The position numbers were made by a program, and so were the translations under genes. This document shows positions 11,877-56,778 of a stretch of DNA of 64,000 nt, piece by piece. Within the stretch, counting starts at the first letter, position 1. The number at the start of each line of letters is the position of its first letter. The notes beneath the pieces were generated by a model. It saw only the letters and a list, made by a program, of their open reading frames with translations, made no database searches and was not told the DNA's origin. The DNA is from Diplonema japonicum (lineage: Eukaryota > Protista > Euglenozoa: Diplonemea), in contig OZ025658.1 in NCBI GenBank assembly GCA_964019335.1, forward strand, positions 62,001 to 126,000. Direction: 5' to 3'.

Positions 11877-11920
<44 letters not shown>

Positions 11921-11965
11921 TGAGTTAAAGGAAGTCTTTGTGAGACGCCCCCTTGTTCTCATCTT

Positions 11966-14900
11966 CTACCTGCACCTATCCCCTTTCAGCAGCGGGTTCT
12001 CCTCCTTTGGTGGTCTTGCCGGCCTTCTCCCCAGCCTGGCCGCTCTTTCTCTTCGTTCTCTCGCCCATTGTCCTTTCAATGCCTCTAGGTCATGCTTGGT
12101 CTTCGGTGATGCAAATATCGCCCTCCTGTTCCATCCGATCACCGCCTTTGTCCTCCCGATGGATCGTAGTGTGTGCACCCTTGTGCTCGGCTCAGCTGGG
12201 AAGGCCCTCCTTCCTTTCACCTTCTTCAGTACCCTCCCTAGCTCCCATGTGTGCCAGATCTTCTTCATCAGTCCATGCAATCTCCTCGCTTTCTGCTGTA
12301 CTTCTGCGAGATCCCCCAGCTTCCCTCCAAGGGTCTTCCCGGTCACGTTCTCGAAATCCAGTGCCAGCTCCACCGTCGACACTGACGTGTTTCTGCTGCC
12401 TGCATACCAGCGCAGTTGCCGCATCCACCTCAGCACCTCCTTCGTGTACTCCCGTAGGACATCCCCTGCCGGTAGCTTGCCGAAGTCCTTGTCCGACGGT
12501 ACTGGGTGTTCTTGACCTTGTGTGATCTCCAGCCACTGGTGTGTGTGGTACACCTCCTGCCTCTTCGCTTGTAGGGCTGCGTCCCGCTCCCCCACCACCG
12601 CCAGCAGGTACCTCTGCGTTCCTTCGAGCCTTTCCCTGACATCCTTCCCTGCTCCCCTTGGCAGGATGCCATGCAGCTTCGTACACGGTTCCAGCCCCCT
12701 GCGCGTCATGCCTTCGTGTTCTTCCCGCTGTTGCACTTCCTTGGCCTTTTCGCACTCCCACAGTGCGTGCTCCAGCATGTTGGGCAGCTGTTGCTCCTGA
12801 CCGCAGATGTCGCAGTGTGCCGTCGTGGGTTCGGCCTGCTTAGCTTCTTGCTTCCTCGCCTCCGCAATCAGCCACTTTTCGGTGTCCTGTCCTTCCTCTT
12901 CTTCTTCTTCTTGTTCATCTTCAGCCTCGTCTTCATCCTCGTCTTCTTCTCCTTCCGCCATCGGGATGTGCTCCACCGTGTCCGTGCGCCATCCCCGTGG
13001 GTTGATGTAGAACACTGCCCCCGAGATGATCCTTCGCACGTCCCTTGCTGCAATCGGGTCCGTCACCACCAGCTTCCTCCACAGCGCGTTGGTCTCCGCT
13101 GCTGCCGCAGCTTCCATGCCCCCCATGGTGCTCCGTTTGCTCATGATTTCCTGTGCTTCCGCCCGCCTGAGTCGGTCCCTGATGTAGTGCTTGTAGGGCT
13201 CCTTTTCCAGTGCGTGGGTGTCCTTCAGCTGTGCCCAGCTTAACTTGATCTGAGGCAGCCACCTTTCCATCATGATGCCCACCGGTCCCACCGGTATCTT
13301 CTTCCCGCTGTACCGTTTGGCAATGGCGTCGCAGCGTGTCCACAGCTTGTCGTCCTTCTTGCAGGCTCTGTATAGGAGCATAAGTGCTCTGTATGCGGCT
13401 GTCATCTGTGGGTGGCTCGTGTGTCCCGGCAGTGTCACGGATAGTACTGTGCCTGGGTTCCTGGTGCAGTACTTCTGCCCCCAGAGCGCGTACGTGGTCT
13501 CCTTCACCAGCGTGGCCATTTGTCCCGCTTTCGGCGGTGAGAATGGGCAGTCGTAGAGGCAGCTCGGTAGGATCGTGCTGCTGATGATCTTCGCCTTCTG
13601 CTGAAAGGACAACGGCGTTGCTCCCAGCCTGCTCAGCGTCCCGAGTGCCTCCGCCGTCCTGTCGCCGTTGGTTTGCGGCCTGCCGTCTGTCCGCAGCTTG
13701 GCTCCCAGTACTCCTACAGTCCGTGTCGGCTGCAGTTCCTCGCCTTTCACCTTCACCTCCGGTGTCTTCCTGTTCACTGCAAAGGTCTTCGTCTTCCTGG
13801 TGTTGAGCTTCATCCCCACCTGTTTGCAGAAGGCTTCCACTGCGTCTACGCCTTCCTGCAACGCCGCACCGAGCCGTGCCAAGAGATATGCATCGTCCGC
13901 GTAAGACAGCGAGCGGACCCCTGTGTCGTTCTCCACCTGCTTCATTAGTACCGCCAACAGCGCGTTGATGAGTACCACTGAAATCGGGCATCCCTGAAGG
14001 ATTCCATTGGTTGTGTGGAACTCCTCCCCCACGCCTGCTGCGTACCTGAACCGTCTTCGCATGCCTGCGTACATTCCTTTCAGTGCCCTGAGGATGCCTG
14101 TGTCCATGCCCATGTCCTCCACCAGCTCCAGAACCAGCTGTTGCGGTACACTGTCAAAGCATTTCGCAAAGTCGAGTGCCACCCCGACTAGCGGTTTCCC
14201 CTCCAGAATGGATTCTTCGATGTCAAGGGCGAGGTCCAAAAGTGCGTCCTCTGTCCCGAAACCCGTGCGGAATCCGTATTGCTTGTCGTGTATCCATTTC
14301 TCCTGCCAGATGAGGATATCAGACAGTCGCGCGCATGCCCAGAGTCTGTACACCGCAGATGTGACTGTGATAGGCCTGTGCTCCAGTGGTCCCGCATCGT
14401 CGCACTTCGGTACGAGGGTAACCAGTGCCGTTTTCATGGCTTCCGGCCACCTCCCCGTTGCTTCGATCGCATGGAAGAGCATCGCCCAGGCGTCTAGTAC
14501 TGACTCTGGTAGTTTCCGTAGCTCTAGCATCCTCCACCCGTCGATGCCTGCCGCGCTTTTCTTGCTTTTCTTTCTGAGCACTTCCCTCAGCCTTGCTCCC
14601 GTCAGTTGTGTCCTCTCCATCTCATGCCGTTGCACGAACTTGCTGTACTTTGCCTTGAAGGGGGCATAGAGGGGCTCCGGTCGGGACTCGTATTTCGCAA
14701 AGACGGTCTTCCACGCCTTGCGCATGACGCTGTCGATCAGTCCGGGGGACGCAAAGAGCACCATCCCTTCCTTGACCGCCCTGGTTCCGTCGCTTTGACG
14801 TTTGCCTTTCGCGACTTTTACCAGTCTTGTTGTCTCGCGTCCTGCTGCAACCTCGGCCAGGTATTCTCGTCTCCGTGACGTGTTCGCCTCGGTCCTTTTC

Positions 14901-16390
14901 TTCCGTTCCTCAGCTGCAATTGCGTCTTCCATGTTCAGCGCTGCTGCCAGCATGTCCTCTATGAGAACAGCGTCGTGCGGCACCGGTTCAGCTGGTACTG
15001 CCAGAGCCTTTGCTTCCCTGTTCACGTTTCTTATCGTGTTCAGGGTCGGCTTGCTTAGCCCCTTGTCCTCAACTGCTTGCTCGAGCTGTTGTTGCAGTGT
15101 CCGCGTCTTGAGCTTCAGCTTTTCCAGTCGCGCTTGCCATGTTGTAGCTGCACCCACCGTTCCCGTCGTCGTTGGTGCACACACTTCCTTCTCCTTTGTG
15201 CTGGTGTGTTTGCCTCTTCCGACGTACGCTGCCCTCCCCGGCGTCCCCACTGGTTGGTCTATGAGGAGGTCTTCGGTGCACCGGGAGAGGGTCTCGAAGG
15301 CTTTTGTTATATTTCCTTCGTGCAGGTACTGTCGGAATCCGGCTGCTTCCACTGCTTCGGCTCCTTGTTCTTCCGTTGGCTCATCTGCCGTCTCCAGACC
15401 CCTCGGCAGCATGTATCGTTGTACCGTCATCCTGAATCTGTCGAGCTCAAGTGCAACCGTCAGTGTCCGGTGATCCGTCCCCTTGATCGCTTGGTTCACT
15501 TGGCATCCGGTGATGGCCGGTACTGCCTCCGGACTTGCCAGTATCCTGTCGATCCGCGTGGCGCAGTTCTCCCGTACAAACGTTGGATCAGGTTGTTTCC
15601 CTCTCCATTTTGCGCATAGGTCCGCTGTGTCCGCCCATCCTGCCTGCAGTGCCTTCCGCAGTTCCGGGGATCTTGCCTCGTCGGTGTTGAAGTCGCCAAC
15701 GACGAGTATTGGCACATTGCCGAGCTCCTTCGCCTTCTTCCGCAGGATGTAGTGGAGGAGGGTCTCCCTCTTTGCGGTCTCTTCACGTCCTGTTCCTGCC
15801 GGGCAGTATATCGATATGATATGTAGCCATCTGCGTTTGCCATCGATTGCGACCTGAGTGTGCAGCCACCTCCTGCGTTGTTCTTCAGATTGGTCGTTGG
15901 TGTCCAGAGAACCTGGCAATGCTGTCCTGGGTTCTCGGATTAGGGTTGCCAGTCCTCCCCTCTGAGCTACCCAGTTCGAAGCGATTCCCTCCACCTTCCT
16001 TCCCGGCTGCGGCGGTCCCCACATCGGCTTCCACTTCTTCTTCGTCTTCTTCCCGAGCTCCCGCTCCATCTCCTGCTGCCCAGCTAAGGTCAGCGCCGTC
16101 TCCTGCGTGCAGATCACGTCGACGTCCAGCTTCGTCGTAACCTCCTCTATTTGGTTGCGTAGGGAGGCCACGTTCACTGTCGACACGTACATGTTGGGCC
16201 CAGGGTTCGGATGTATCCCCTGCGCCGTGAGCCTCGCGAAGTCCTCTTCCTCCTCTGACCCCGGTTTCCGCCTCCCCGTTTTCAGTTGGGGAGGTTTCCA
16301 ATGCAGCTCACGCATTGTTCCCGCCTGCAGTTCTCCATGGCGCACACCCTCGCCCTCCTGCCTTTCAGCTGGCCATGACATGACCCGCAT
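11966..16390 (-). CDS. LINE ORF2: 2A-like motif, APE endonuclease, reverse transcriptase, C-terminal CCHC zinc finger
   Basis: GIHPNPGP; APE motifs VNVASL, CTQET, IYCP, GDFN, RIDRIL, TDH; RT motifs RPIT, QYGFR, LDFAKCFD, GILQGCPIS, YADD, VLG; CDICG...EHALWEC. No RNase H seen. Real start uncertain because the frame is open to 18070. Confidence 0.92.
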   Translation of the reverse strand: MRVMSWPAERQEGEGVRHGELQAGTMRELHWKPPQLKTGRRKPGSEEEEDFARLTAQGIHPNPGPNMYVSTVNVASLRNQIEEVTTKLDVDVICTQETALTLAGQQEMERELGKKTKKKWKPMWGPPQPGRKVEGIASNWVAQRGGLATLIREPRTALPGSLDTNDQSEEQRRRWLHTQVAIDGKRRWLHIISIYCPAGTGREETAKRETLLHYILRKKAKELGNVPILVVGDFNTDEARSPELRKALQAGWADTADLCAKWRGKQPDPTFVRENCATRIDRILASPEAVPAITGCQVNQAIKGTDHRTLTVALELDRFRMTVQRYMLPRGLETADEPTEEQGAEAVEAAGFRQYLHEGNITKAFETLSRCTEDLLIDQPVGTPGRAAYVGRGKHTSTKEKEVCAPTTTGTVGAATTWQARLEKLKLKTRTLQQQLEQAVEDKGLSKPTLNTIRNVNREAKALAVPAEPVPHDAVLIEDMLAAALNMEDAIAAEERKKRTEANTSRRREYLAEVAAGRETTRLVKVAKGKRQSDGTRAVKEGMVLFASPGLIDSVMRKAWKTVFAKYESRPEPLYAPFKAKYSKFVQRHEMERTQLTGARLREVLRKKSKKSAAGIDGWRMLELRKLPESVLDAWAMLFHAIEATGRWPEAMKTALVTLVPKCDDAGPLEHRPITVTSAVYRLWACARLSDILIWQEKWIHDKQYGFRTGFGTEDALLDLALDIEESILEGKPLVGVALDFAKCFDSVPQQLVLELVEDMGMDTGILRALKGMYAGMRRRFRYAAGVGEEFHTTNGILQGCPISVVLINALLAVLMKQVENDTGVRSLSYADDAYLLARLGAALQEGVDAVEAFCKQVGMKLNTRKTKTFAVNRKTPEVKVKGEELQPTRTVGVLGAKLRTDGRPQTNGDRTAEALGTLSRLGATPLSFQQKAKIISSTILPSCLYDCPFSPPKAGQMATLVKETTYALWGQKYCTRNPGTVLSVTLPGHTSHPQMTAAYRALMLLYRACKKDDKLWTRCDAIAKRYSGKKIPVGPVGIMMERWLPQIKLSWAQLKDTHALEKEPYKHYIRDRLRRAEAQEIMSKRSTMGGMEAAAAAETNALWRKLVVTDPIAARDVRRIISGAVFYINPRGWRTDTVEHIPMAEGEEDEDEDEAEDEQEEEEEEGQDTEKWLIAEARKQEAKQAEPTTAHCDICGQEQQLPNMLEHALWECEKAKEVQQREEHEGMTRRGLEPCTKLHGILPRGAGKDVRERLEGTQRYLLAVVGERDAALQAKRQEVYHTHQWLEITQGQEHPVPSDKDFGKLPAGDVLREYTKEVLRWMRQLRWYAGSRNTSVSTVELALDFENVTGKTLGGKLGDLAEVQQKARRLHGLMKKIWHTWELGRVLKKVKGRRAFPAEPSTRVHTLRSIGRTKAVIGWNRRAIFASPKTKHDLEALKGQWARERRERAARLGRRPARPPKEENPLLKGDRCR

Positions 16391-18039
16391 TGACCCTGTG
16401 AGGCTTGGTAGGTCGCAGACCAAGCATGGACATGCACCTTCTGCTTCTTCTTCTCCTTGCCTTGCAGCTTCCCTTCCGACGAGGTTGTTGGCTTCCTGTG
16501 GCCGGGGCTGCTGGGGTCGGGCTTCTTCGGCGACGGGGAGGGTGAGGGAGTCTGGCTCCTCTGTCGCTTCGGTGACGCTGCCTTGTTCGTGTTCGTGTTC
16601 GTGCTTGTCTTTTTCGGGGACACTGCACCTGCCGCCGCCGCCGTCGCAGGCTTCTTCTTCGCCGTCGGCGTCTCCGTGTTCTGTTCCGGAGTGCCGCTCC
16701 TCTGCCGCTTCGGGGATGCAGCGCTTGTCGTGGCTGCTGGGGTCGTCGCGGCCCTGTTCTCCATCGCCCTGCGTGCCACCTTCCTTAGCGCATCTTTGAG
16801 GCGGTCGACTTCGCTCTGCAACTTCGTGACGAGCATTTTGTATTGCTCTAGCTCTGTTGCGTTGATCGTGGTGTCCTTCTGTTGCTGTTGTTGTTGTTGT
16901 TGTTGTTCTTGCTTCTGCGGCTTCTTTGTCTTCTTCTTCTTCTGTTCTGTGGTCGTGTCCGCGGTCGCGTCCTTCTGCTCCCGTTCCTGCAGCTTCTCGG
17001 GGTCGGCGGCCGCCCAGTACTCCTCGCCCTTGTTCTTGCCGTAAAAACAGAGGAACTCGGGCTTGGAGTATCGTGTGTCGCAGTTTTCGTTGGGGTCCTT
17101 CCTCGTTTCCCCTTTCGCCACCACCATTTGCAGTGGTTGCTGCTTCCACGCCGCCGTCAGCGCCATCCGGTGCTCCCCCACCTGCACCTCGCCGAACGGG
17201 GGCTGCCCTGCCGACTGGACCACCGCCAGTTGCCGCCCCTTCTTCGGGATGACGCGAATGACCGTCGCGTCCTTCCACCCGTTGTTCCGTAGCAAGCCCT
17301 GCACCTGCTCGCCCGTGATCCCGCGTGGCACACTGTGGAGGTCGAACTTTCGTCCGGCCCCTGTTCCCACCAGCAAGCCGGCCTCCTGTGCTTTGTGTCT
17401 GGCGTCGTCGCTGTCCAGGTTCCCGTCTTGCACCAAACCGAGACCCCTCCCGTTGCTTGTGAGGGTGGCCGTAGGTCCTCCGATCCCCCGCGCCGCCGCC
17501 ACGTCCCACGTCCTCAGCCATAGTGGTGGCTGCTTCTCTCGCTTCCTCCTGCGGTCCTCTACGAACAAGCCCCCCGCACCAGCCTGCTTCGCCTTCCCTT
17601 CTTCGTTGGCCGCCACGTAGACCAGGAGGTCCAGCTTGGTCAGCTGTCCCTTCCAGGCCTCGCCTCTTGGCTCTGAGATCCCCCGCAGGGTGACTCCCAG
17701 CGCCTTGAGTGCCTTCACCGTCTCGTTCTTGGCGTCCGCTTGCACCTTCGCCCACCCGTCCTCCCCGGATGCGGCTCTCCACCAGATGGCTCGCAGTACG
17801 ATCGTGCTGCTGCTGCTGCTGTCGTTGTCGTCGTCCTCGTCCATCCACTTCTCCTGCACCTCCTGCACCTGACGAGAAGGCCATTCCTTCGCCGTCACCT
17901 TCTGCGCTTGCACCGGCTTCACTGACCTCGCCATTCGCGCCACCTGCACCCATGTTGATGATGCTGCCTCCTTCTGGGGAGTTTGCTCCCCCCCCTTGGG
18001 AGGGGACCCAGGGCCACCACGTGGAGGTTCCCCAGCCAT
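16282..18039 (-). CDS. LINE ORF1 (Gag-like; coiled coil, S/T/P/K-rich linker, C-terminal Cys cluster)
   Basis: 585-aa ATG-initiated ORF with protein-like composition upstream of the APE. Ends CGSCHG...VCAMENCRREQCVSC. Confidence 0.8.
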   Translation of the reverse strand: MAGEPPRGGPGSPPKGGEQTPQKEAASSTWVQVARMARSVKPVQAQKVTAKEWPSRQVQEVQEKWMDEDDDNDSSSSSTIVLRAIWWRAASGEDGWAKVQADAKNETVKALKALGVTLRGISEPRGEAWKGQLTKLDLLVYVAANEEGKAKQAGAGGLFVEDRRRKREKQPPLWLRTWDVAAARGIGGPTATLTSNGRGLGLVQDGNLDSDDARHKAQEAGLLVGTGAGRKFDLHSVPRGITGEQVQGLLRNNGWKDATVIRVIPKKGRQLAVVQSAGQPPFGEVQVGEHRMALTAAWKQQPLQMVVAKGETRKDPNENCDTRYSKPEFLCFYGKNKGEEYWAAADPEKLQEREQKDATADTTTEQKKKKTKKPQKQEQQQQQQQQQKDTTINATELEQYKMLVTKLQSEVDRLKDALRKVARRAMENRAATTPAATTSAASPKRQRSGTPEQNTETPTAKKKPATAAAAGAVSPKKTSTNTNTNKAASPKRQRSQTPSPSPSPKKPDPSSPGHRKPTTSSEGKLQGKEKKKQKVHVHAWSATYQASQGQCGSCHGQLKGRRARVCAMENCRREQCVSCIGNLPN

Positions 18040-18108
18040 CTTTGATTGCGATTATTTTGATTAATTCCAACCCAAATTACCAGCCCCTTTTTAAAAAAAA
18101 AAGAGGGC

Positions 18109-26988: not shown

Positions 26989-29900
26989 TCATTTCACAGT
27001 ACATCGCCTGCGTAAAGCCCAAGAAAGCGCAAAGACCAAGACCGCAATACAAATCGCGACCAAAGGGTCCAAGCCGTTCTTCTGAGATAAAACCGGCACA
27101 AGATACCGTGGGTACAACGACGCACCAAGAACATGAGTTTCCGGAGGAAGAAGAGTAGTACTGGAGTTGCACAAGGCCCATCCACCTTGCGATGTACTGC
27201 ACTCTGCTGCTGGTGGGATCAAACAAGTCCCCTCTACACATGGTGTGGCACAGTCACACACCGGGCCAAGCCCTGCCTTTCGATAAGCTTTCCATTTCCC
27301 TTCCTGGACTGCACCTTCACCCAAATACCACAGCACGCATGATGTTTCCCGCGAGTCGTATCCTATACAACCTCTGTCTTTGTCGCATCTTTCTTGACAC
27401 CCGCCGACTCCGTGTTGTACGCCCACTACCCTGTCGGCCCCTCGGAGTGGTGGTGAATACATCTCTCGCTGCTGGGTCACACGGCACAGCAAGGAGCCCT
27501 CGCCGTTCTGTACGCCGTTCAGCCAGCACACTCCGTTGCCGAAGGAGAACATTGTGCAGTTGCGCACCGCGAGGCATGCTCCTGCGCATTGTACATACGA
27601 CGTGTCGTGCTTCTTGTAAAGCGGCTGCACTGTGTTGGCCACTCCTGCTTTGCAGTCAAAGAACTCCCTCAGCGATGTGTCCACATGAGCTACGGGTACA
27701 GGCACCATGCAAGGGTGCTCCGACAGGACGGACAAAAGCGTGCAGTGTGGTGTCGTTAACACCCCTGCGCACCCTGGTGTCGCTCTGCATAGCATGACGC
27801 ACGTTTCCGGCTTCACGTTAAACGTTGCAAGTACAAAGTCGGGAACCTCGTCTGTGCACTTGTCGTGCTTCATGCAAGATGTGTACTGTTCCGTGGTTTG
27901 CACTTGCTGTGCGGACGGTGTGCGGATGCCGCATGTTGCCATGTGGTACGATATGCCAGAACACTCCTTCGTGTCCAAGCATATGGCTTTGCACTCTTCC
28001 AGACTGGTCTTCACTTCCAGGATGAGTCCTCCGACCAGTTGTACCCGTTCCGTGCACTCCAGTAAGGACATTTCAGTGGTGCTGTTTTGTTGGGAGTCTC
28101 CTACCGCCATTTCCGGTGAGCTTCGTTCACAGTACTGAAGTGTTGACGTTGCGCGGGGTCGAACCACAACCTCGCCGTTCCTAAGGCTGCACCTGCCCTT
28201 CTTCGGGTCATACACCACACCGGTACACTCGTCGCTGACCAGACGGCATCTTCCCACGCAGTCCTCGAGGCTGCTGATGTCTCTTAAGTTCAGCAGCATG
28301 CCGTCATCCACAGTGACGAGCCCCTTGCAGGTGTACTCTTGCACCAAAGGAGGCGGCTCTGGTATTTCTTCTGCCCACCCCCGCATGCATGAGGTGGCCT
28401 TGTGCATGACAATCCTTAGCATGGCAGGGTTCCCCTTCAAGAAGCAACTGCCCTCGGTTACTTCCAACGAGCGGCAGCTGGGGAGCAGTGTGCAGTGCGA
28501 AGCGCACATCTCCACACTGTGCTTCCCTTCGAGCTCCACCAACACATCACCTTCCACAACGCTGCCCTCCTCGCAAGTGTACTCTCCCATGGCCACTGTG
28601 TATGCCTCGCGAGTTGTGCTACAGACTTCCTCGTCTTCCCTCGAACCGACAACCCTGTTGTACTTGCTGCGCACTTTACACGTGTGGCCGTTGTGCGAAT
28701 AGGTAGCTGTGGCACACCCGGCAAGCTCTGCGCAGCGTTTTGAGCACTCGGCCATACTCGCCGTGCCCGTTATCACACTCAGTACGCCGCCCACAGCTGT
28801 TTGACCCTTCTCGCAAGTCAGGTACTCAGCAGCGGCGTCCCTGGTAGCCTGACACACACTGTCAGTGCCCTCTTCGATGCGCTTCACATCCTCAGCAAAC
28901 ACACTGCATGTCTGCTGTTCTTCGTTATACGCTGTGAAGCTGCAGCCCTGATACATGTCACAGATACCGTCGCAGCTACCTTGCACGATGACCTCTGGCA
29001 TCCCAATGACCATCCTGTCCGGATGGCACTCTTTCTTCATGAGCCTCTCGCTGCCGTGCCCTTTTTTCACGCACATGGTGTTGCCCGTCAAAGTCAGGTC
29101 CATCAGACACTCATTTCCGCTGAACCTGATGCCTTTGCAGCTGGTCCTGTTCTCGCACTTTTCCCAGCAGTCGTGCAGCATGTGGTGGGTGACGTGCGGT
29201 GCGTGGTGCACGGAGCATGCCTTCAACATGCTGGGCTTGCTGGTGGCATAGAGTGTAGTTTGTGTGACCCCGCTGTTATGCAGAGTGCAGAGGGTCCCGT
29301 TGTACACGGAGTGCTCGCAACGTGTGTTCTTCAAGCACGACGTGTAGCAGGCTTCTGCCTCGTCATCGTTCGTGGTGTGCAGGATGTTGCCAATCTTCAC
29401 TAACTCTGCTGACGAGATAACGCCGCCTGTCCCGTTGTTTCCGAGCAGCGTGAAGAATTGGCCACTCGCCTTGGCACTACTAATCACAGGTTCCAAGAGC
29501 AGCCGCAGCTCTCGCTTTGTGGCGACACTCGCGTCTGCTGTGACACTGACATCGATCCTGGTCGGGCCCTTCCGCACCTCGTTGCCAACCTTGACAATCG
29601 TGATACCCGCTTGTTCGAAGAGGTTGCGGTACGCCATGCCGGTTTCCTTCGGTTCCTTGCTTGTGGTGGTTGCGATGGTGACAGTCGTGGTTGTTGCCGT
29701 GTCGTGCTTCTCGTTGGTAGGCTGATGGCCGCCCTTCTGCACCTTGCACGATATGATGTTGGTGAAGCCAGGGATCGCTGTTGCAAAAGACGACCTTGCT
29801 GTGCAGACGAGCTCTGAAGGCGAGTACTCAGCAACAACGCAAGCATCGGCAGCTCTGCTGCAAAAGGCTTTGCAGTCGTCGATGGAGATGACGCTGTTCA

Positions 29901-32900
29901 CCTGGAACAGTTCGCCGCTGATATACTTTGTGCGCGAGCACTCGTACTCCATGGCGACACGTGGTTGCTCGCCAGTGACGCAGGCTACTCCTTCGAAGTC
30001 TTCTGCGTCTATGGGCACAGCGTCGCGGGTGCGCATCTCGCAGATCCCGTCATGGTATACTAGACCGTCACAGGCGGACACTTCACCGCACAGCACCCTG
30101 CACTTGCTCTCTGAAGCCTTTATAATCAGCAGCTCGCCCCCGATGAGCATCTTCTTGTGGTAGCAATGGGTGGGTGTTGAGTGGTTCACGGAGTCCTCCC
30201 GCACCTTCGAGCACGTTATGGCACCGCTGTTGCCCACAGCAGCCTCTAGCACGGCGTCGTCCGACTTCAATGAGCAAGCTTTGTCCGAGTAGCTGAACCC
30301 TACACATTCACCGTCACTGCTGCACCTGTCCCTGCACCCCTCTGCAGTGTCGCTGTATGATTTGATGGTCCCTCCGATGTACATGCCACCACATGTATAC
30401 TTTACTACCAGTCCCCTGTCTTCTACGACTGCTTTGGCAGCAGCGAGGTCGATGTCCCTCCTACTGACCTTTACGTCATGCGGTAACTTGACTGCCAAAC
30501 GCACTTCTGCCTTGTTACTCGCTTCCAGCACTCCAAACTGGCGCACAGCAATCCTGTTCCCTGCGACTCCCGTGTCGCCCGTGAGCTCTACGATCTCCAG
30601 CGTCACCCAAGAAGGGTCAATGGACAATGCTGCTGCGATGGCCTTGATGAAGCGCTGCTTCTTCGCCATGAACTCATCCGCATGAAGTGGGACCATCAGA
30701 GATACCGCCGTGCGAACGCCCTGCGGCTTCACAGCGGGGGCTGGAGTGTCACATGTGATGTTCATGCACGTCAGCACCTCACACAACACGGAAGGGTCGT
30801 GTTTGAGAACGTTCCATATCTTAGGGATGGCCTGCACCACTGCAGCGGGGATGTCTGTCTCGTCATCGGCGGCCTTACGGTACTCTCGTATGAAAGCCTC
30901 CACAGGGTCCTCTGTTGGCACGTCGATGGGCACTGCAGTGGCCACTGGTTCTTGCGTGGGAGCGATTGTTGGGTTTGCAGTAGGTTCTGCAGTAGGTTCT
31001 GCAGTGGGTTCGGAAGTAGGCTCTGCAGTGGACTGTGCCGTCGGTACTGCAGTGGGCGTGGAAGTTGGTTCGGCAGTCGGAACACTTGTCGGCTCTGCTG
31101 TGGGGGGCACCGTAGGTGCTGCTGTGCTCACAGGCTCTGTTGTCTCAGGAGCATTTGTGACCACGGGTACAGGAGTGCTCTCTATGAATGGTGTCACCTT
31201 CAGCACTTCCACCTTCTCCTCTGACACCCCAAACGTCTGAGCGACAGACTTTATCCACGCCCCTTCGTACTCAAGTTTTGACTCAAAGTCCACAGGTGCC
31301 TCGTTTTCCCCATCAACAGGAGCCTCGTTCTCTTCATGGATGCAGATGTTCGTGATGTTTACGATGGAGCTTCTGTTGGTGACCCATCCTACGGGCTCTG
31401 TGTCGCGCAGCTGTGCTAGGCCGTTCGAGACCAACACCGGATTGAGAGATGCTCGGAAGATAGATAGCGTGTCGGTCAACTCGAGGTTGAAGAGGGACTT
31501 AGCTAATGCACCGAGGTCTTGTGATACGTCGTCGAGTTTGATAGTGTACCGCGTGACGATGGTGAGCCCCTGGTTGTCGCCAGTCTCAGTGGCATTCCTG
31601 CCATCGAAGGCACGTGGAGTCAGGTGGTATGCAAGAACGGCTTCAACGTCGACGGTCGTCACGTAGCACCCGTTGGGGCTGTCGCCCTTTTGGAGTTTAG
31701 TCATCTCGATGTGGTGAAGGGTGGTGGCTCTACGGCTTTGATGTGGAGGCGTGCAGAATGTCCAACCGCCTACTTGCTCAGTCGCACACCCACGGTTGCC
31801 CACCATGCACCAGCTCGGCACCGCAGGGTCATCGCAGGCAATAGATGGGCACCCGTGCTGCTTCTCACCGCACGACCCACTCACATCTGTTCGCGTCCAT
31901 TCTTCCAGACACTCGCAGGGCTTCTTCTCAGCTTTTCTGCAAGCCATGGGTGCGTTCGGCACATTTGCCTTTCTGACTTCCACCGTCTTCAATATGCAGC
32001 TTGTTCCGTCTGCTATTACTAAAACACAGGCCTCCAGCTTGTCGCACTGCCCCTTGCATGCCTCCACAGGGATGTTCTCCAGCACTGCAAGGTCCCCTTC
32101 TATATACCCCTGTCTGTCGCACCAATAATTACCAGAGGCTTCTACTGAAGTATTAGTGTGTTTCAGGCAAGCACCACCCTTCGACTCGCTCGTCCCCGCA
32201 CTCATATCGGAGAACAAGTTGCAGCTATCTCCCAACATAGAGGTCCCCTTGCAGCCAGCAATACTCGCGCAACGTTTATTGCAGTCCTTAAGAGAGAGGC
32301 CTGTGAAGGTCACAAGGGGGGTGCCTTCTCTGATGTTTGGACCGCACTTGAAGACCATGTAAGGTACTTCGGGGACAGTGTGCTCGGAGACGTCACCGAT
32401 GGAGGGGATCCAGATCTTGTCACGGACCTCCCACGAGGCCACCTTCGTGGGGTCGGTCACATCTGAGGAGGATCGTACGATGCCCTGCTTGTGTTTCACA
32501 CCGGTACCTACAGCAACCTGCCACCTGCCCTCCGCCTTGAACAAGGTCTTGTCATTGTTCGTGTAGTCACCCTCTTTGTTCAATACGTACTCCCCACGCA
32601 GCTGTGTCACTTCTGGGAAGTCGACGTACACCTGTGCAGGCTGCGCAGCGGTGCTTAACTCTTCTTTCCTTATGCACGCCACATTGCCCTCCTCGTGCAC
32701 TATCTCTTCCTGTTTCGAGATGCGGCATTCTTTTTTGCTGTATGAGAAACATTTGCAATTTGACATTTCCGTGCACTTCGCTTCGCATTCACGTGGAGCA
32801 AGCGGCAACGTCAGTAGGATACTGTCGTCGGAGCACCCCTTATCCCTGTTGCATAAGAAGGTGGAGGATTGGATGGGGATCGCCACAGGCAGGCATGCTG

Positions 32901-43595: not shown

Positions 43596-46500
43596 TCATC
43601 GCCGTCGTGTCTTCCTCCTTCTGACAACACCCGCGAAGAGCATCCCAGCAGCAAAGGAGATGGCTATGGAAGGGATAACAAAAGAGAGGCTTGGGTGGTG
43701 CAAGACAGGGGCAGGCTGAGAGGCTGCCTCTGTGGCTGCAACACGGATGGAAACATCATCCCTGATGGTATCATAAAGAGGTGAACTAGGCTTGGCTGAG
43801 ACACTAACAGCAGCAGGTGGCAGGGCGAGTGTGAGCATGACGTGTTCCTTCCATAAAGAAAGCAGCCCGTCAGTTGGTGAGGCTCCTGCTTCGTTCAGCG
43901 ACAGCAGACGCCTCTTGCTCGCTGCGGAGCTTGGCTGCTCATCCACTGGTGCTTCGTCTCCTGTAGGTGGACTGAAGGGACTAGCCCCTTGGACAGGCGC
44001 ACACTCACACTCCGACTCCTCATACACCATCACTGTCACGTCTTCACACACTACCACCACCGCAGGGAAATCTTTTTTCACTTCTTCAACAGGACACAGC
44101 CCCGCCGCCCCCATCGCCACGTTCTGCACATCCCCTTCTACTTTCACGATCAGCATCACGGACATGGTACCATCCTTTACACTGCCTTGCCTCAGCGCCT
44201 GGTACTTCTGCATGGATAAGCTCATTGCAAACCACTGTGAATAAGCAGATAGGCGGCCTATCACATCCCGCCCCTCTGCTATGTTGGACAGCACCACTGG
44301 CAGCACCAACACTGTTGTGTTGCATTGAAAGCCTGCTGAGCCGGTGATACCCAGCAGGCTCGCTTCACGTCGTGGGATAGACGCCGCTGTTTGTTCCTCG
44401 TGCGCTCGAGACGGTTCACTGTGTGTTTCAAGATTCTGCTGCTCGTGGCGTTCATGTTCCGTTGCGGTCTGAACCACTTCCTGTGGTGCCTTCTTGCCTA
44501 CGAAGAGCGGGGGGTCTACGTTGTATCCCTTCAGCGTGCCCAGTGCCTTGCTCGCGAGGTTCCCGTACATCCCAAGTCCTCTCCCGCTGTAGTCCTCGGG
44601 GACTTCCACCGTTGTTTCTAACACCACATTTCCTACATCCACTTGCGTGGCCCTCACGTCGAAGATGATGTACGCGGCTGTGTCAGGAAGGAAGCCGGCA
44701 TACTCCCTACATGAGGTCACGTTGTAGCCAGGCTTGCTGTGCGTCATGCGCATTGTTGAGAACAGCTCGCAGGACTCCTTGGTCCTGGAGAACTGGTACC
44801 CCAAGCAGCCGTCGGTTCTGCTGCACTGCGTCTCGCATGTGGCCACCTGCAAGCAGCCTTCGATGACGTACATTATCTCGCCCCGTGACGTCCCCTCCCT
44901 GCATGCGTACCGCACATCACGCATGGGCTCTTCAATGTCGTATTCACACACAACCTGCCGCCCTCCTTCGATGGGCATCACCTTCCCAGGCCCCGTGTAC
45001 AGCACACACCGCCCTCCCTCACCGTAACTTACTCTGCTGCATTGTTCCGATTTCATGCAGTACTCTTTGCAGGCACCAATGTCGCGTACACCCCTCACGA
45101 CCATCACCCGCCCTGTGCTGGAGGACCACACGAAGCCATCTCTGCACGTGAAAGGCCTTGTTTTGTTTTTCGTTGCACCTGCGAAGGGAGTGAGGGTCTT
45201 GCTGCATGTGATGCCTCCTTCCTCGTTTCGGTACCTGTTGAAGTGTCACAATGGCAGTCTTTGCATACTTTCGCGGTGCGTTGCTATACGACATGATGCA
45301 CTCCCTGGAGAGAAACGAGAAGCCCACACAGCTGGGGGTGTCAGCGCACAGTTCCTGCGTATGGTGGATGGTGGCTGTAACATGCGGCATACCCTGCAAG
45401 CCATGGTGGTGTCCACAGCGCTTGCTACTAAAGAAGATGAATGTGACGGTGACGGCAGTACTTTGTTTCCTTCGCATGTGAAGCCATTGAACAGCTGCGC
45501 TGTCTTCTCAACAGTACAGGACATGACGTCTGCTCGGGGGACTGCACTGGTGTCCTGAGACGCAGATAGAACACACTCGTCGTGGCTATACTGGATGGTG
45601 TTGCAGGCCTTGATTTTCATGCACGCTGCTTCACAGTACCCCACAGTGTGTTCGGCCAGTTCCACAGCAAACAAACGTGAGGTGACACCTGTTCCTTGTC
45701 TGCATTTCCACTTCTTCGTTGTGGACTGTTGCACAAGGTCTTGCTGTAAATTTGTGCGCCTCACACAGCTTGTGAGTTCCTCCCCCAAAACCCCACTCGG
45801 TGTAAAGGCGGGCTGCTGCAGGTATTTTTTCAGCACACAACTGTTCTTGAACGTGTTATAAGTGACGCCCTTGCACTCCATGCGTAGCTTTGAGCACGCA
45901 TCTTGACAGCTGGCTAGACTTTGCGCTTCTGTTTTCAAGATGTCTCTCCCAGAAAGGTCCATCTTGCTTTTGCAATTGTAAGCCGACTCGAGGAACGGAC
46001 GCTGCTCCGACTTTTCACATCTGAGCCCTGTTCCCCACTCTAGAGCTTTCCCAGTCTGCATGAGGCACTCGCCGTTGGCAACAACGAAACCCACGCATGC
46101 CTTCTCCTTGTTGCACTGTCCTTCACAGTCCTGCACATTCGTCTCTGGGGCGTGTTGGTTGCAATGATAGTGCTGCGTCGTGAGAGCTGCGGTTTGCTCC
46201 TTTTGCGTGCCGTCACTGCGCCTCAGGTGCTGCCCCACAACACAGGAGACGCTGCTCTCCGCGTCTACTGTTGTGAAGTTGCCCTTAACGATGCTGCATG
46301 AGCTCCCCTCGTGATGGACTCCCTTGCAGTTCTCGTCAGTCCTGCACAACGCAACGCATCCTGTGGCCGATTGGGCCTCGAACACATGCTGGTCTTCGTG
46401 GTTGTGAGGAATCAACAACGTATCGGAGAAGCAGCTCGCGGTGTGCACTTGCGGGTCTCCAGCAACACAGATCACGTCATCAGAGCCCCCATAAGAGGAC

Positions 46501-49500
46501 ATGGTTACGGCGGCGCCGGGGCCATACAAGCTGCATGTGTCTCCGCTGTACTTTGAGACACCACATCCTGTGACCTTGAGGCATTCTTCCTCACATTCAG
46601 TCGCGTTGGATACTTGCAGAGAGAACAAGGATGATGTTTTCGGCGCGGTAACGTCCCACGCACCGCACGACATGCGCATCTTGCGACTGGCTGCTGGCGA
46701 TTCTTGCCTCAGGATGCACGACACTCCGTTGGCTTTGGCTTCTTTTGCGAAGCCTTCCGCTTCGTACAGTTGACATTTGCCATCCTCATGCTGCACCCCG
46801 CTGCAGGACTCGGTCTGCGAGCAGAAGCGCAGGCATACGTTGATGTCCTGCACGGCATCGAGCTGCGTGATGAACGTGCCGTGCACCGAGAACCACTCAG
46901 ATGTGCAGGAATACTGCTCGTCGGGTAATACCATCGCGCACACAGTGCCATCAGCCCTCCCTAAGCTCACTGCGCCCATTGTTTGTATTACAATACACTT
47001 TTGCGGTGTGTACATGACTGGCAAGCGCATTGATTTTCCAAACTCTAAGCACTCCTCCACGCTGCTTGCCTCCACAGACCGCAACGGCGTGCCGCCCACG
47101 ATCGTTCTTCCCTCCACACATTTGTGGTGCTTTGTTGCGTTGCTGCGGTGCTTGCGGTAACAAATAGTATTGTTACTGGCACGAACGGGTACTTTTATCA
47201 TCGCGCTCCATCCGAAAGCCTCGCACAGTCCTTCGTCGACGGTGTACCCACGGCAGGTGCTGTCTGCTTCACACCATTCGGAGCACTCGCTGCCCTTCGC
47301 TGTCAGTAACACAGTGCTGGGATGCTTCCCAATTTCGCACGTGAATGGTCCTGACAGGCTGTAGGTGCACGCTGTAGTGCCCGGCTGGTCTCGCATTGAT
47401 ACCTCAAAGAAGAAAGCTGTGCACACCGACAACAGCTCGTTGAAGTTCACTGCAGTGCAGTGCGGGGTACCATCGGTACGCAGCTGCAGACAGAACCTTT
47501 TGCAATCTTGCAGCGTGGTGTTGTCCACTTGTACCGTCTCTGCAGTGTCCTCAGCATCGATCGTCTTGTCGCTGTGGCAGCGGAATGCCGTCACCGGTAT
47601 GTGCACGGGGTCTCTGTGCGCCACCACTACTTTAGCATCTGGCACTTCCTTCCACTGAGTGCTGTTTTTCAACCTGACAGCCCATTTGTCCAGCCTGTGC
47701 GGCGGCCTGCCACGTGCTTCCCTTACGGAGCGCGCGTCACCCTCGTTTCGCAGTACATCATCACTCGACAAGGCGATCATCCAGTGCCCTGAGGATGAGA
47801 GGTACAGCGTGCCTCCCTGCTCTGAGGTGTACAGCGGGCGGGCATGGTGGATGGCAGTAGGGTGGAACACGCCCACCACACCATTCACGTCCACGGAAAC
47901 TGACTGTGTGACCTGACCATACTGGGTTGTCTGGCAAACCAAACTCTCACCCGACCGCACCACACCGTCGTGTGTTCTAATATCGCACAGGTGTGTCGTT
48001 GTGTTGTACAGTACCTTCCCGCAAGCAGGCACGCTGTCGCAATGCTCCATGCAGCTGGACACGCTCTCCACGTGCTCGATCACGAACAGTGACCCTCCCT
48101 CTATGTCAGACCCCACTTCGCATAAGTATTTTGTGTTCTCATTGGTTTCTAGTGTTTCTGCACCGTCGGTCCTGGTGGCGTGGCCCTTCGACCGCTTCCA
48201 CATGCCATCTACACGCACCACCCACGAGCCGAACATGTCATGCTTCTTTTGCGATCGTGCCTCCACAGTCCCTGTCTTCATCAACACGTAGTACCCTTCG
48301 CCGTTTAGCTGCAACGTGACGTTCGTGTCGCCAACGAACTGTTCGATGCTACCGTCGACTGCCTTGTACCTGCCAGAGAGGTCAGAACGCTCGGGCAGTG
48401 TGATGTAGAAGACCATGCGCATACACGTTACTGCCGTAAGCGATGAGCGTGACGAGGGGACCGGCGTGCCTGTGGACAGCTTGCAGGTGTACCCATCGTG
48501 CTCTGCAGCAGTGCAGCTAGGAATCTTCCCGCACTCCAAGATGCACTCCTCTGAAGTGGGGATGTTTGAGTACGTTGTGATCTCCTCGCTGGAATGGCTC
48601 CCATTCACGCAGTGGAAGGACTTCCCGACCCACATGCTTCTCGTCGCCAAGGACTCAGCCTTGTACGGCTTGTTTCTGAAGGCGTCACGTTTGCAAGACA
48701 CGTCCTGTGAGTTCCTCAAACTTACCTCTGCCACCACGCTGCGTAGGATGCATGACCTGCGTGGCGTATAGCTGGCCACACTGCAGCCCTTTACAGATGC
48801 GCAGAGGCTCATGCAGTGGTCGAGGGAATCAACGTTTGGTGTGATCTGCAAGTCACCCCCCACGTACCCTGTGTTGTTCGAGCAAACGTATTCGTGGTCA
48901 GTTTCAAGCACGATGCTTGAGAGACAAGCTCTTGTGCTGCTGTCGGTGGTCACCTCGATGGTTTGGCTGTCGTACAGGTTGCACCTGAGTTCTTCTGCTG
49001 AGAAGATAAACGCTTTGCACTCTTTTTTGAGGCGCGTGCAGTACAGCCTGCAGAGGTCAGCTGTGGTGATGTAATGCAGCGTGAGGAGTGGTGTGTTGTA
49101 GATAGTGGAGTTCGGGAAGCACTTGTACCCGTCGTCATCGGTGGCCACGGTAGCGCTCAGAGAGCACGACACTGTTCCCTGTGACGGGTGCTTGCCTGTT
49201 GCGCCTGTACGAAGGTCGCACCTTTTATCGTGCCACGTCACAGTCCTACATTCTGGGATGAAGTTGCAATGCGCCCTGCACATGTCGACACTGCTTACCT
49301 CCTCCACAGTGACCAGTGTCCCTCCCTCGTACTCTACATCTTCATCACAGTGGAAAATGGGGTCCTTCAGTGCTCCCTGTTCACCCCTCGCCTTCCAGCA
49401 CCACAGAACCTGCGAAGAGGAAACAGCATAACCCGCCTCCGCCTTGTCGTAAAGGTCGCAGTTGTTGTTGATATAGCCAATGGAGGAGCACGTGGGGACC

Positions 49501-52500
49501 ATGTCGCAGTGCTCCATGCATGCCAGCACCGACTGGGTGCTCTCGACCGTCATAAGCGGCGACCCTGTGATGCCCGATATGCTGCATGAGTACTTCTCGC
49601 TGACTGTTTCCTCCCTTAGCGGCATGCCGTCCGTGCTCCTTGGGCGGCAAAGCACCGACTCGACGTTGCTCGGCACCACCTTGGCAGACTGGGAGTACAG
49701 CGAACAAGTATTACCCGTCAGCTGCAAGGCGGCACAGCTGCCAGAGTCGATGCAGAGCTCCTTGCAACGCGACAACTTGGCTTTGCCCTGAGAGCTGTCT
49801 AGTGAGATTGAGAAAAGGTGGCCTTCCGTGAGCTCCGACAGCACAGTGTCGCATGTAACATTCCAATGATCGGCACGGATGCTCCTCTGGGGCGCAGGGG
49901 GGACCCATGTTTCCCTTACGCATGTTGTCACGTTTGCTGACTGGAAAGTGCTCAGGACAGCTTGCGCTGATTTCAGTGTGCATTCTTTGCTGCCCAAGCT
50001 GTACATCACACCCATGCATTCTGGTATCTCAGAGCACTTCCCTAGGCATAGGTCACCCGTATCGACACCAACCGCACGGAACAGCTCGCCCCCAACCAAA
50101 TCGTTGTTGTTGCATTTAAAAGACCCGTAGTACACCTTGACAGGTCCCTTTGCCAGGCGCGTGCAGGCGAAAGACTGCTGTTCAGACACTGTGGCCGACA
50201 AGACAGCCTCCTTACCTGAGAGGATGCATGCGTCGGCTGTGAAGGTAATGCTTGTACAGTCGGGGTGGGCGTCCTCACAGTGGGTCTCGCATTGGGACAG
50301 GGAAGCCACTTTCTCAATGACTACAAGCTCAGATCCTGTGTAGGCACTATTCTGGTGGCATGTGAAGGAAGGTGTAGGTGCCAGTGCGAGGGATCGTAGG
50401 CAGATCAGCATGAGCTCGTCTACACCTTGGACAACGCTGCTGTCAGCGGAGTACAGCTCGCAGCTCTGCTTTGCTTTAGAATACCCGACTCCTGTGCACG
50501 TGCTGACCTCAGTGCACCGCACCTCACACTCTTCAAGTGAATCGACCTCATCGAAAGAGAGCAGCCGGCCATCCTCCGTGAGGGCTACGCCAGGGAGACA
50601 CCCAAAGCGTGACACTCCTGCTGTCTTCACCACCTTCTTGCATATGCGTCCCTCTCCCGTGTATACAGCGTACACATCTGAGCTGTCCAGCAACGTGCAT
50701 TCACCCTTCCTGTACAGTGCTGTCCTACACAGCGACATTTCGTCACACCTCTCGTTGCACTCCTTAAGTGGAATGTTTTGAATTGTGAAAAGCTCGTTGC
50801 CTTTGATGCTCTTCCCATCCCACTCCTCGCAAGTGGGTGCGGGCACGGATGCCTTGCGCCCTTTATGCAGGCAAACAACCTGCCCAGCTACGCTCTTTTG
50901 CTGCACAACACCGGTATGGTCTTTCAAGCTACAGGTCTTCGTAAAAGTGCAAAACACTACAGCAACGCATGTCTGGACTTCATCACACATGGTTTGGCAG
51001 GTCTCCACTCCAGATAGGTCGTCCACAGAGACAATGTCGCCACCCATAAATGAAATTGTCTCGCTGCATTGAAACTCAGCAGCCTCGCTACCAGGTCTCA
51101 CATTGTGCTTGGTGCATGTCACGCAAGCAGCGTCGTCGTGAGTCTTGTCGCTGCGTTTGGAGAGTTTACAGACAGACTGGGTATGCTCCCAAGACACCGC
51201 CATGCAGGAAGAATCAGCAGAGCATGCATCGAGGCATGCAGAGGAAGTTGACGCACTGGCGTACGGTTTCAAAGCGTCCACTGCAACACCAGGCACACAA
51301 GAATACATAGATTGAGGCATCCCCGATAACCTGATGGTAGGCTTCGCGCAGAGCACCGTACTTGCCGTTTGTGCCTTCACGACTGCTGCGTTGATGGAAA
51401 TCAGAGTGCACGTCGTGCCATCATGCACTACAGCAGCGCATGTCGGTGTGTTGCTGCACTTCATTTGGCACGCCTGCATACCAGACAACTCACTCAGCAG
51501 CCCGCCTCCAATGGCCATGTTCCCCACGGTGCAGTTGTACAGCTCGTTCATCGTTCCCCTTGGGCGGTAGCATGACACAGCGTCCTCTGCTTCAACCTTC
51601 AAAGCACTCCCCACGGGCTTCAACAAACACTCCCCGTTACTGCGGTACACCACAGCTTCACAGTTCTTCTCAACACGCGAGCACTGATGCTGGCACATTT
51701 CGACGGAGGGTATCTTGTCGAGCACCAGAGTCGAGACTCCTTCGTACTTCATACCCGCCTCGCAGATGTAGTGCGCTGAGTGCGGTGCTGCTTTTTGGCG
51801 CATGCAGGAGACCACATCATCGGTGGGCACCCTGTGGAGAGAATCGCCAGTGAGGAGAGTGCAAGTGAGTGCTGAGTATGTCATTGCTGTACAAGTGAGG
51901 ACCTTAGAGCATGCCTGGAGACACGCATCAGGCGACTGCGGGTTGTCTATAGAGAAGAGTTCCTCACCGCCGACGACCCTTCCTACTTCACACCTAAAAT
52001 GCGGTATGGGTATCAGTTCTCTGATTGCCATCACAGCTCGGTTTCCGCCTTGTTCAGACATGACCTTACCTTTTGTGGTTTTGATGGTTGCGACAAGACC
52101 CTCGCCGTCCCCACCCAGGATCCGTGCCTGTCTGGCATCGCTGCCAGGGTGCGTCACATGGATGCTGAGCTCGTTCGCAGGTACGCCACTCGCTGTTGAG
52201 ACCGTCTGCACGAACGTTTCGTGTATTGCGTTGAACTGTTCCTCGTTCAGTCCGGGGAGTGCAACCGTCAAGTCGAACCTCGTCTTACCACCGCCCTCAT
52301 CGACACTAACATCCACATTTGTTGATGGTATGCAGGACCTGCCGTCTGGCTGCAGTTCATACCCCGACCGGCAGTGGCAGGAATATGACCCCAAAGTGTT
52401 CCTGCACAACTGTGCGCACGGCTTTAGTTCACATTCATCGATATCTTCGCAACCCTCCGCAGTGAAGGACAGCTCGTGGCAGACAGCCCTGGGGGGGATT

Positions 52501-55500: not shown

Positions 55501-56636
55501 GACAGCGAGTCGCCTTCGAAGCGAATGCCACCCTCGCACCGGTAGCCACGCTGCTCCTCGCTGGTGATGGAGGTGGCCGACACGTCTGACGGGAGCCGTT
55601 TGCATGACTCGGCATTGGCGTTCGTCTCCACCGAATGGTAAAAGGACTTCAAAACACAAGTGTCGCGAATGAGAACAGCAGCGACGCACTCCGCTATTTT
55701 CGAACATTCCCGTTGGCAGGTTGCCATGCCCCTCGTCCGCTCGATCTTGACCAGGTCGCCTCCCTTCAACCTGATGTTGTACTCACACTCGTACCGTTCT
55801 TCCGGCTCTATACTGTCTCGCCTCTCGGAAACGCTTGCTGTTCCTGTCGAAGGGTTCCTGACGCAAGAGGTCTGCCCGACGGCCACCCGCCTCGGAGAGA
55901 GGAAGGACTTCAAATGGCATTCCCGCACAGCTTGGGAATACGTGACTCCAAGGCAACTCGCTGTCTTCGAGCATCGGAACTGGCACTCTGGTAACGTGGA
56001 CGTCTCTGTCGTGAGCAGCATGGTACCTTCCTCATGAGCGGTGTCTTGGTAACATTTGAATTCGGAGGGATCGGGCCGGCCCGCTATTGTTCTCTCCACT
56101 ACTACCCTACAGGTGGTGTATCCCAACGCAGGTAGCGTGGTTACATAGTCCGATTTGCTGAAGAAGATTCGAAGCTGGCAGTGCTGTCGGCCTTTGTTTT
56201 GAAACACTACACTTTCACATCCTTCGAACGCTTCGCACTTCGAGAGGCAAGCGGGTAGATCCATGCGGTACCCGCTGTACTCTGTCAGGAGGAGCCCTGG
56301 GTTGTTCTTGTGCAACACGCACTCCCAGTCCTTTTTGGTGGGGGTTTGGTAGCATGCCTCGCTGTTAGCCTTCTCGTCTACTTTTATCCTTGAAGCCTGT
56401 TTGAGGGTACAGACCCCGTTCTCCACCTGTCCCACCGTGCACATGTGTGTCTTTTCGCATTCGCTCCAACAGTTTACAGGGTTTGTAGACGATATTTCCC
56501 CAATTACATCTCCTGCAATGGCGGACCCTTCCCAGCATGTAAAGGACCGTGGGGTGACACCTGATGCCTTGACACTGGCAACAAAACAGCTTGTGGTGCT
56601 GATGATGAGAAGCCAGGCTGTCCTACGCCGCGACAT
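43596..56636 (-). CDS. Giant type I membrane protein with PAN/Apple repeats plus Sushi/CCP, EGF/cbEGF and Cys-rich repeats (~4322 aa)
   Basis: Two GTATGC-CAG introns (45355-45392, 38 nt; 45235-45268, 34 nt) join ORFs 45246-56636 and 43596-45131 and rebuild a PAN domain. Signal peptide; cbEGF CEDIDEC...; C-terminal TM followed by RRRKTRRR. Confidence 0.88.
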
Positions 56637-56778
56637 TTTTTTTTTTCCCCCTCTCCTCTCCTTCTTTTTTTCTTTTTTCTTTTTTTTTTTGAATTCATTT
56701 TGTTATGTTTTGGGGAGTGTGCGGTAATATGATGATTTCCCCCTCTTTTCCTTGACCAAAAAAAAAAAAAAGAAAATT

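Follow-up and report, generated by a model that had tools for sequence, protein, structure and literature searches.

How ribosomes reach the second open reading frame (ORF) of a two-ORF retrotransposon, when that frame differs from the first, is the question raised by an element of the marine protist Diplonema japonicum. It lies in a 64,000-nucleotide stretch of assembly GCA_964019335.1 (contig OZ025658.1, positions 62,001 to 126,000), hereafter the window, whose numbering is used throughout. The element (11889 to 18090, minus strand) is an intact, multicopy long interspersed nuclear element (LINE) with two ORFs, the second encoding an APE endonuclease and a reverse transcriptase (RT). ORF1 (16282 to 18039, minus strand) comprises 584 amino acids plus a TGA, and ORF2 lies in the -1 frame relative to it. 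The ORF2 frame was found to be free of stops through the whole of ORF1, and we tentatively propose that a few ribosomes would enter it near the 5' end of the RNA.

Stop codons in the ORF2 frame along ORF1

The ORF2 frame was open from stop to stop between 18076 and 11966, that is, over 2036 codons spanning all of ORF1, a property missing from the preliminary description of this DNA. The part proposed as a disposable leader runs from 18076 to 16199 (minus strand). Over the 585 ORF1 codons no stop was observed in the -1 frame, versus about 6.6 expected from the rates of the element's own ORF2 core (P = 0.0009, a conservative value), and every control window of 585 codons contained at least 4. 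All four quarters of ORF1 were devoid of -1 stops (2.0 to 3.1 expected per quarter), and none of 5,000 synonymous shuffles of ORF1, local or global, was stop free in this frame. At sites where a third-position T would result in a -1 stop, T was found in 0 of 111 cases, versus 33 of 280 at safe sites (p = 9e-6). When restricted to TGA, the test rendered 0 of 41, while the matched TG[CGT] sites gave 16 of 99 (p = 0.0026), with no such gap in the ORF2 core used as a control (17 of 122 versus 35 of 228). The open -1 frame is more than a chance event. For its part, the +1 frame of ORF1 contained 11 stops. An antisense ORF was rejected as the cause of the open frame, each antisense frame holding 6 to 12 stops.

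The -1 frame was already open 12 codons upstream of the ORF1 AUG, in a region (18070 to 18044) that contains near-cognate AUH and UUG codons. The first two AUGs of the RNA are that of ORF1 (18039) and one in the -1 frame (17953), and a +1 AUG is absent until 16793. Further AUGs of the leader frame lie at 17884, 17521, 16390, 16381 and 16315.

A comparable frame was found in a relative. Among 20 related loci, the ORF1-ORF2 junction was visible in six (L013, L016, L017, L018, L020 and L024), several of them degenerate, and the whole of ORF1 in L020 only; the distant matches L028 to L032 were not used. An RT tree constructed without named reference clades grouped the window element with diplonemid relatives. 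L020, whose RT is 33% identical to that of the window element, shows no similarity to it in ORF1 or leader. In its own numbering, ORF1 runs from 229 to 2415 and no stop interrupts the ORF2 frame between 111 and 6650, a span that includes 39 codons upstream of the ORF1 AUG and the motif GDVHPHPGP. Over its 728 ORF1 codons the -1 frame was stop free (site counts of 0/84 versus 40/500; 15 stops in the core control; conservative P = 0.0018), and the +1 frame again contained 11 stops. Similarly, the -1 frame of L016 was open over the 156 ORF1 codons visible (P = 0.025).

Codons were also compared with those of a 95%-identical copy from run X13, the counts referring to 40 of the 115 differences. In the overlap, 15 of 26 changes were silent in the ORF1 frame and 2 of 26 in the -1 frame, none of them making a stop, and all 11 changes in APE were silent. 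On these counts, protein-level constraint acts on ORF1 and on APE but not on the -1 leader. An origin of ORF1 by overprinting on an ancestral single ORF was rejected, given that it is the ORF1 frame that shows the codon bias and the constraint.

At the junction, the ORF1 TGA (16284 to 16282, minus strand) is followed about 13 codons downstream by a 2A-like motif, in the -1 frame and placed before APE. ORF2-frame AUGs lie at 16390, 16381 and 16315, and another at 16192, two codons after the final Pro of the motif. The preliminary description had recognized this arrangement, including the AUGs at 16390 and 16315 and a UGGAAAC just before the ORF1 stop. It had also offered, as an alternative, a single-ORF element disrupted by one indel, to which we give practically no credence. 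No 1- or 2-nt indel was among the differences listed for positions 16190 to 16400 in runs X1, X2, X11 and X13 (the one gap was of 3 nt), and 11 transcript-derived proteins were identical across the junction. A contig of a second subfamily aligned in islands only, at offsets of 0, 15, 21 and 30 nt; one island covers 16200 to 16277, with 11 differences over its 78 nt. In its unaligned ends, which were read by hand here and below, the ORF1 stop was equally far from the 2A and Gly-Pro was kept. Another D. japonicum family and D. papillatum possess homologues of ORF1 as proteins in their own right; by this comparison, ORF1 is a real gene for a conserved diplonemid protein. The two separate ORFs and their -1 junction are thus conserved.

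The 2A-like peptide before the endonuclease

The peptide DFARLTAQGIHPNPGP is encoded at 16243 to 16196 (minus strand) and is the only occurrence of [NH]PGP in the six frames of the window. Skipping in DFARLTAQGIHPNPG-P is predicted between 16199 and 16198, and ORF2p would then have 1,410 amino acids counted from the post-skip Pro (11966 to 16198, minus strand). This Pro is residue 627 of the 2036-residue frame, six residues before the Pfam match of APE (residues 633 to 869).

The core octamer GIHPNPGP differs from the StopGo core (D/G/C/N)(V/I)ExNPGP at p14, with H for E. The D-to-G and E-to-H substitutions remarked on in the preliminary description are present, but their oddity had been overstated, since both are published active variants: at p12, G is found as often as D, and at p14, H is a rare variant that was >95% active in its own natural context (PMC12846837). 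With respect to viral class B, or motif 1, StopGo peptides, W-V-(R/K)-D-L-T-x-E-G-(V/I)-E-P-N-P-G-P (PMC12846837, PMC12338488), the element matches the register L-T-x-x-G-I-x-P-N-P-G-P and differs in having Arg for Asp at 13, Gln for Glu at 9 and Asp for Trp at 16. The octamer G[IV]HPNPGP occurred 13 times in 12 viral contigs, and in 3 of these contigs it follows W-x-x-DLT-x-E. A separate scan of viral contigs and an APE-based metagenome scan confirmed nothing.

In the second subfamily the island coding for the 2A is 86% identical, and the sequence on either side of it fails to align. Throughout the clade, APE has an NPGP-like motif before it, which is canonical in L013 and L024 and reads GDVHPNPGP in D. 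ambulator relatives. The placement of a 2A-like peptide directly before APE is therefore conserved, and useful StopGo activity of the predicted 2A seems somewhat more probable than not.

We regard it as quite improbable that the peptide is inactive or vestigial and that ORF2p starts at AUG 16192, through reinitiation or from a separate trans-spliced RNA. Such a start would fit the Met that follows the motif by two codons here and in L018, and by few codons in the second subfamily, as well as the missing class B Trp and the small number of highly active retroelement 2As (only 43 of 580; 10.64898/2026.09.24.754024). However, the identity of the 2A island between subfamilies and the canonical motifs at the same place in relatives weigh against such a reading, and the open frame would be left unexplained.

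The -1 frame of L024 encodes a 2A-like motif where ORF1 ends. At about 540 to 830 this locus shows a tandem pair of 2A-like motifs, and between them an apparent decayed duplicate of the APE start. It belongs to a set of eukaryote-type LINE fragments (L023 to L027) in contigs filed under bacterial or archaeal metagenome-assembled genomes, probably through binning contamination.

Proposed entry of ribosomes into the ORF2 frame

The absence of stops from the ORF2 frame along ORF1 is likely due to a minority of ribosomes that initiate in the -1 frame near the 5' end; with entry at or near that end, a frame without stops but with unconstrained amino acids would be expected throughout ORF1. According to our proposal, in which we place slightly less than even confidence, most ribosomes would start at the first AUG (18039) and make ORF1p, while a few would use near-cognate codons of the -1 frame that lie immediately before it. 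Alternatively, leaky scanning could take them to the second AUG of the RNA (17953, -1 frame). In either case they would read a disposable leader of about 600 codons through ORF1, and the endonuclease-reverse transcriptase would be released by the predicted StopGo at GIHPNPG-P, the 2A giving ORF2p one N terminus whatever the entry point. Both complete elements (the window element and L020) show, ahead of the ORF1 AUG, clusters of AUC, AUU and AUA in the -1 frame, which are only suggestive as entry sites.

Several observations weigh against this proposal. A near-cognate cluster in the -1 frame would arise by chance in about 1 in 3 elements, by estimate, and the ORF1 AUG stands in a strong context. 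L020 has no -1-frame AUG within ORF1, so leaky scanning to an AUG is not general. The first quarter of ORF1 taken alone is weak evidence, with probabilities of no stop of 0.11 and 0.27. Host genes under-use TGA in the -1 frame (ratio, 0.75; TGA-only P, 0.005), 1 of 428 control runs was as long as the open run of the element, and the ORF2 core holds a chance open run of 407 codons. The open frame of L016 is not continuous with its APE frame, and L024, which has no TGA at 17 sites, contains two adjacent TAG codons in its -1 frame. As for the 2A, the register of the class B Trp is critical (PMC12338488) and the element has Asp at position 16 and Phe at 15; Crack-15_BF, with E to H, is barely active (PMC3708506); and the annotated protein of the nearest relative (P0003, from D. 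ambulator) contains no NPGP.

Termination of ORF1 followed by reinitiation was considered the first alternative. Ribosomes would restart at AUG 16315 (or 16390) and read a leader of 39 or 64 amino acids before skipping at the 2A, the open frame being chance or a relic. These lengths agree with the 40 to 80 amino acids typical of LINE 2As (PMC3708506), both AUGs are unchanged among the listed changes of the X13 copy, in the second subfamily a -1-frame AUG precedes the stop by a few codons, and there is precedent in SART1 and L1 (PMC5972666). However, the avoidance of stops over about 540 upstream codons in two unrelated elements is not explained by such a restart, the X13 copy loses AUG 16381 and gains a new one among the same changes, and L013 has no AUG between its ORF1 stop and its canonical 2A. 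In the window element, the last ORF2-frame AUG before the ORF1 stop is 31 nt away from it, and the overlapping or adjacent stop-start of SART1 or of termination upstream ribosome-binding sites is absent. Loose reinitiation of the L1 type is possible, and we hold reinitiation as a whole to be unlikely.

A change of frame by slippage was weighed in two forms. The preliminary description had pointed to a programmed -1 frameshift at U_GGA_AAC (16294 to 16300, minus strand), which is in the right phase and 10 nt before the ORF1 stop. This was not borne out. The site is not an XXXYYYZ heptamer, folding 3' of it was unremarkable (z of 0.1 and -0.27 versus mononucleotide shuffles, with pseudoknot-free folding), and it is altered both in the X13 copy and in the second subfamily. 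A shift at this point would also leave the open frame upstream unexplained, and we consider it very improbable. A G-run near the ORF1 start was rejected as a slip site, being changed in the second subfamily. In the second form, slippage would occur at low rates anywhere in ORF1, the open frame collecting all the products and the 2A trimming their mixed N termini. Dispersed slippage requires no AUG, which fits L020, and predicts an open -1 frame with a closed +1 frame, as the 11 +1 stops of each element indicate, and a leader without constraint. Nevertheless, no canonical X_XXY_YYZ heptamer was found in the ORF1 phase, selection against 5'-proximal stops would be weak, and the openness upstream of the ORF1 AUG would have no reason, which makes this form decidedly unlikely too.

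Other relatives join the two ORFs in a different manner. In L013 (97 to 99), L017 (1091 to 1093) and L018 (240 to 242), ORF1 is joined to the 2A-like/APE frame by one in-frame UGA, and their -1 frames contain 1, 1 and 2 stops, respectively. In L013, the in-frame UGA without an AUG before the 2A suggests readthrough. With still more reserve than in the case of the window element, we propose that this group of protist LINEs may widely keep the ORF2 frame open through ORF1 as an entry lane, or use a leaky in-frame UGA in sister families, with StopGo cutting off the leader; the roughly 600 to 770 codons would serve only to carry ribosomes past ORF1.

Identity of the element and known systems

The element, of about 6.2 kb, was delimited by its domains, ends and flanks. 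APE lies upstream of RT within one ORF (PF03372, E = 4e-12; PF00078, E = 2e-25), and a C-terminal Cys/His region follows. As is usual for LINEs, copies are dispersed, the 3' tail is of simple sequence and a target-site duplication is probable, although this 12-bp T10AA string, the longest one common to both ends, is of low complexity. Its 5' copy lies at 18091 to 18102, and the 3' copy ends an oligo(T) tail of about 38 T on the sense strand (11877 to 11916, minus strand). Several different flanks were joined to the 5' end at 18091 to 18101 in contigs of run X1, and the contig depth of the element relative to its flank was roughly 23x in run X1 and 33x in run X2.

Proteins derived from transcriptomes and labelled Diplonema japonicum match the element. 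The two best clusters together have 12 members; in 11 of these the ORF begins at AUG 17953, with at least 816 identical residues that take in the leader, the 2A and APE. Since they are ORFs predicted from Trinity isoforms, some of them chimeric, they evidence transcription and sequence, not translation. Three isoforms (P0020, P0021 and P0002) switch to a 60 to 85% identical 3' half from about residue 1284 of the window ORF2, which reflects either recombinant subfamilies or assembly chimeras.

ORF1 encodes a tentative RRM-like core, a coiled coil, a basic tail and a Cys-rich C terminus. No Pfam family matched it. Its predicted structure was of low confidence (predicted local distance difference test score, 50.6), and the best Foldseek matches were tandem-RRM proteins at E = 0.0025 or worse, with none at 0.001 or better, so the resemblance to RRM, and with it the case for an RNA-binding ORF1p, is weak. 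A HMMER search with ORF1 found 10 proteins. The alignment did not include P0031, P0034 and P0037 (sharing a short repeat only), P0029 (a fragment of the same ORF1) or P0038 (125 amino acids). Neither ORF1 nor the 2A-APE part gave matches in word-indexed searches. The repeat corresponds to ORF1 residues ~311 to 346, a RxDP..Y(T/S)xxEFxxxYG..G...W module that recurs in tandem in P0031 (D. ambulator), P0034 and P0037. P0003 has an OTU-like domain ahead of APE, and P0039, a D. papillatum gene model that likewise lacks NPGP as annotated, has one after an ORF1 homologue.

The sense strand of the element ends in oligo(T), not poly(A), and the insertion lies in a T-tract, on the same strand as the surrounding long host ORFs. 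A second 3'-end relic (60454 to 60379, minus strand; 74% identical) likewise ends in a T-run. Insertion into polypyrimidine tracts could supply a trans-splicing signal to the element while preserving one for the gene that follows. Elsewhere in the window, a small relic (43503 to 43351) resembles the ORF2 C terminus of a distant LINE (40% over 52 amino acids), and two intron-free ORFs of about 3500 to 3800 codons (26989 to 37677 and 45246 to 56702) show likely signal peptides and Cys-spaced repeats that look like PAN/apple modules.

APE-type LINEs bearing a 2A include L1Tc and Ingi, with a single ORF, and CR1-26_BF, CR1-53_BF and CR1-1_LG, which combine ORF1 and a 2A in a minority layout (PMC3708506). 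The novelty of this combination, implied by the preliminary description, thus does not hold. In these elements, as in ours, the 2A-like peptide lies immediately upstream of APE (PMC3708506, PMC3894237). Whereas known LINE 2As are 40 to 80 amino acids from the ORF2 start (PMC3708506), here the frame is open for about 625 codons upstream, and unlike the Ingi clade, defined by a single ORF without ORF1 (PMC3708506), the element has a separate conserved ORF1. Paramecium LINEs have already been suggested to use recoding at the junction (PMC5405496). ORF2 of Paramecium tetraurelia non-long terminal repeat groups 1 to 3 (PMC5405496) and of SART1 and L1 (PMC5972666, PMC5009743) is thought to be reached by recoding or reinitiation, as would be the case here, and L013, L017 and L018 resemble Paramecium group 3 in their in-frame stop. 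The available parts of these papers describe +1 junctions and short overlaps or spacers, and mention neither a junction 2A nor an overlap with the whole of ORF1; those of PMC5006619 and PMC10161547 hold nothing on such a junction. No report of a stop-free ORF2 frame through all of ORF1 was found in the open-access literature, Repbase and subscription papers lying outside the search. While a 2A before APE, with or without ORF1, is already known, the ORF2 frame kept stop free through ORF1 appears to be new with respect to that literature.

The way in which LINEs translate ORF2 of their bicistronic RNA is not yet settled (PMC3894237, PMC5009743). The selection seen here, against stops and not on amino acids, along an entire overlapping gene and in two unrelated elements, would constitute a statistical footprint of ribosome traffic, by which the entry route into the ORF2 frame becomes testable through stop codons. 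It also suggests a role for LINE 2As other than replacing ORF1, namely, that of giving ORF2p an N terminus independent of the point at which ribosomes enter.

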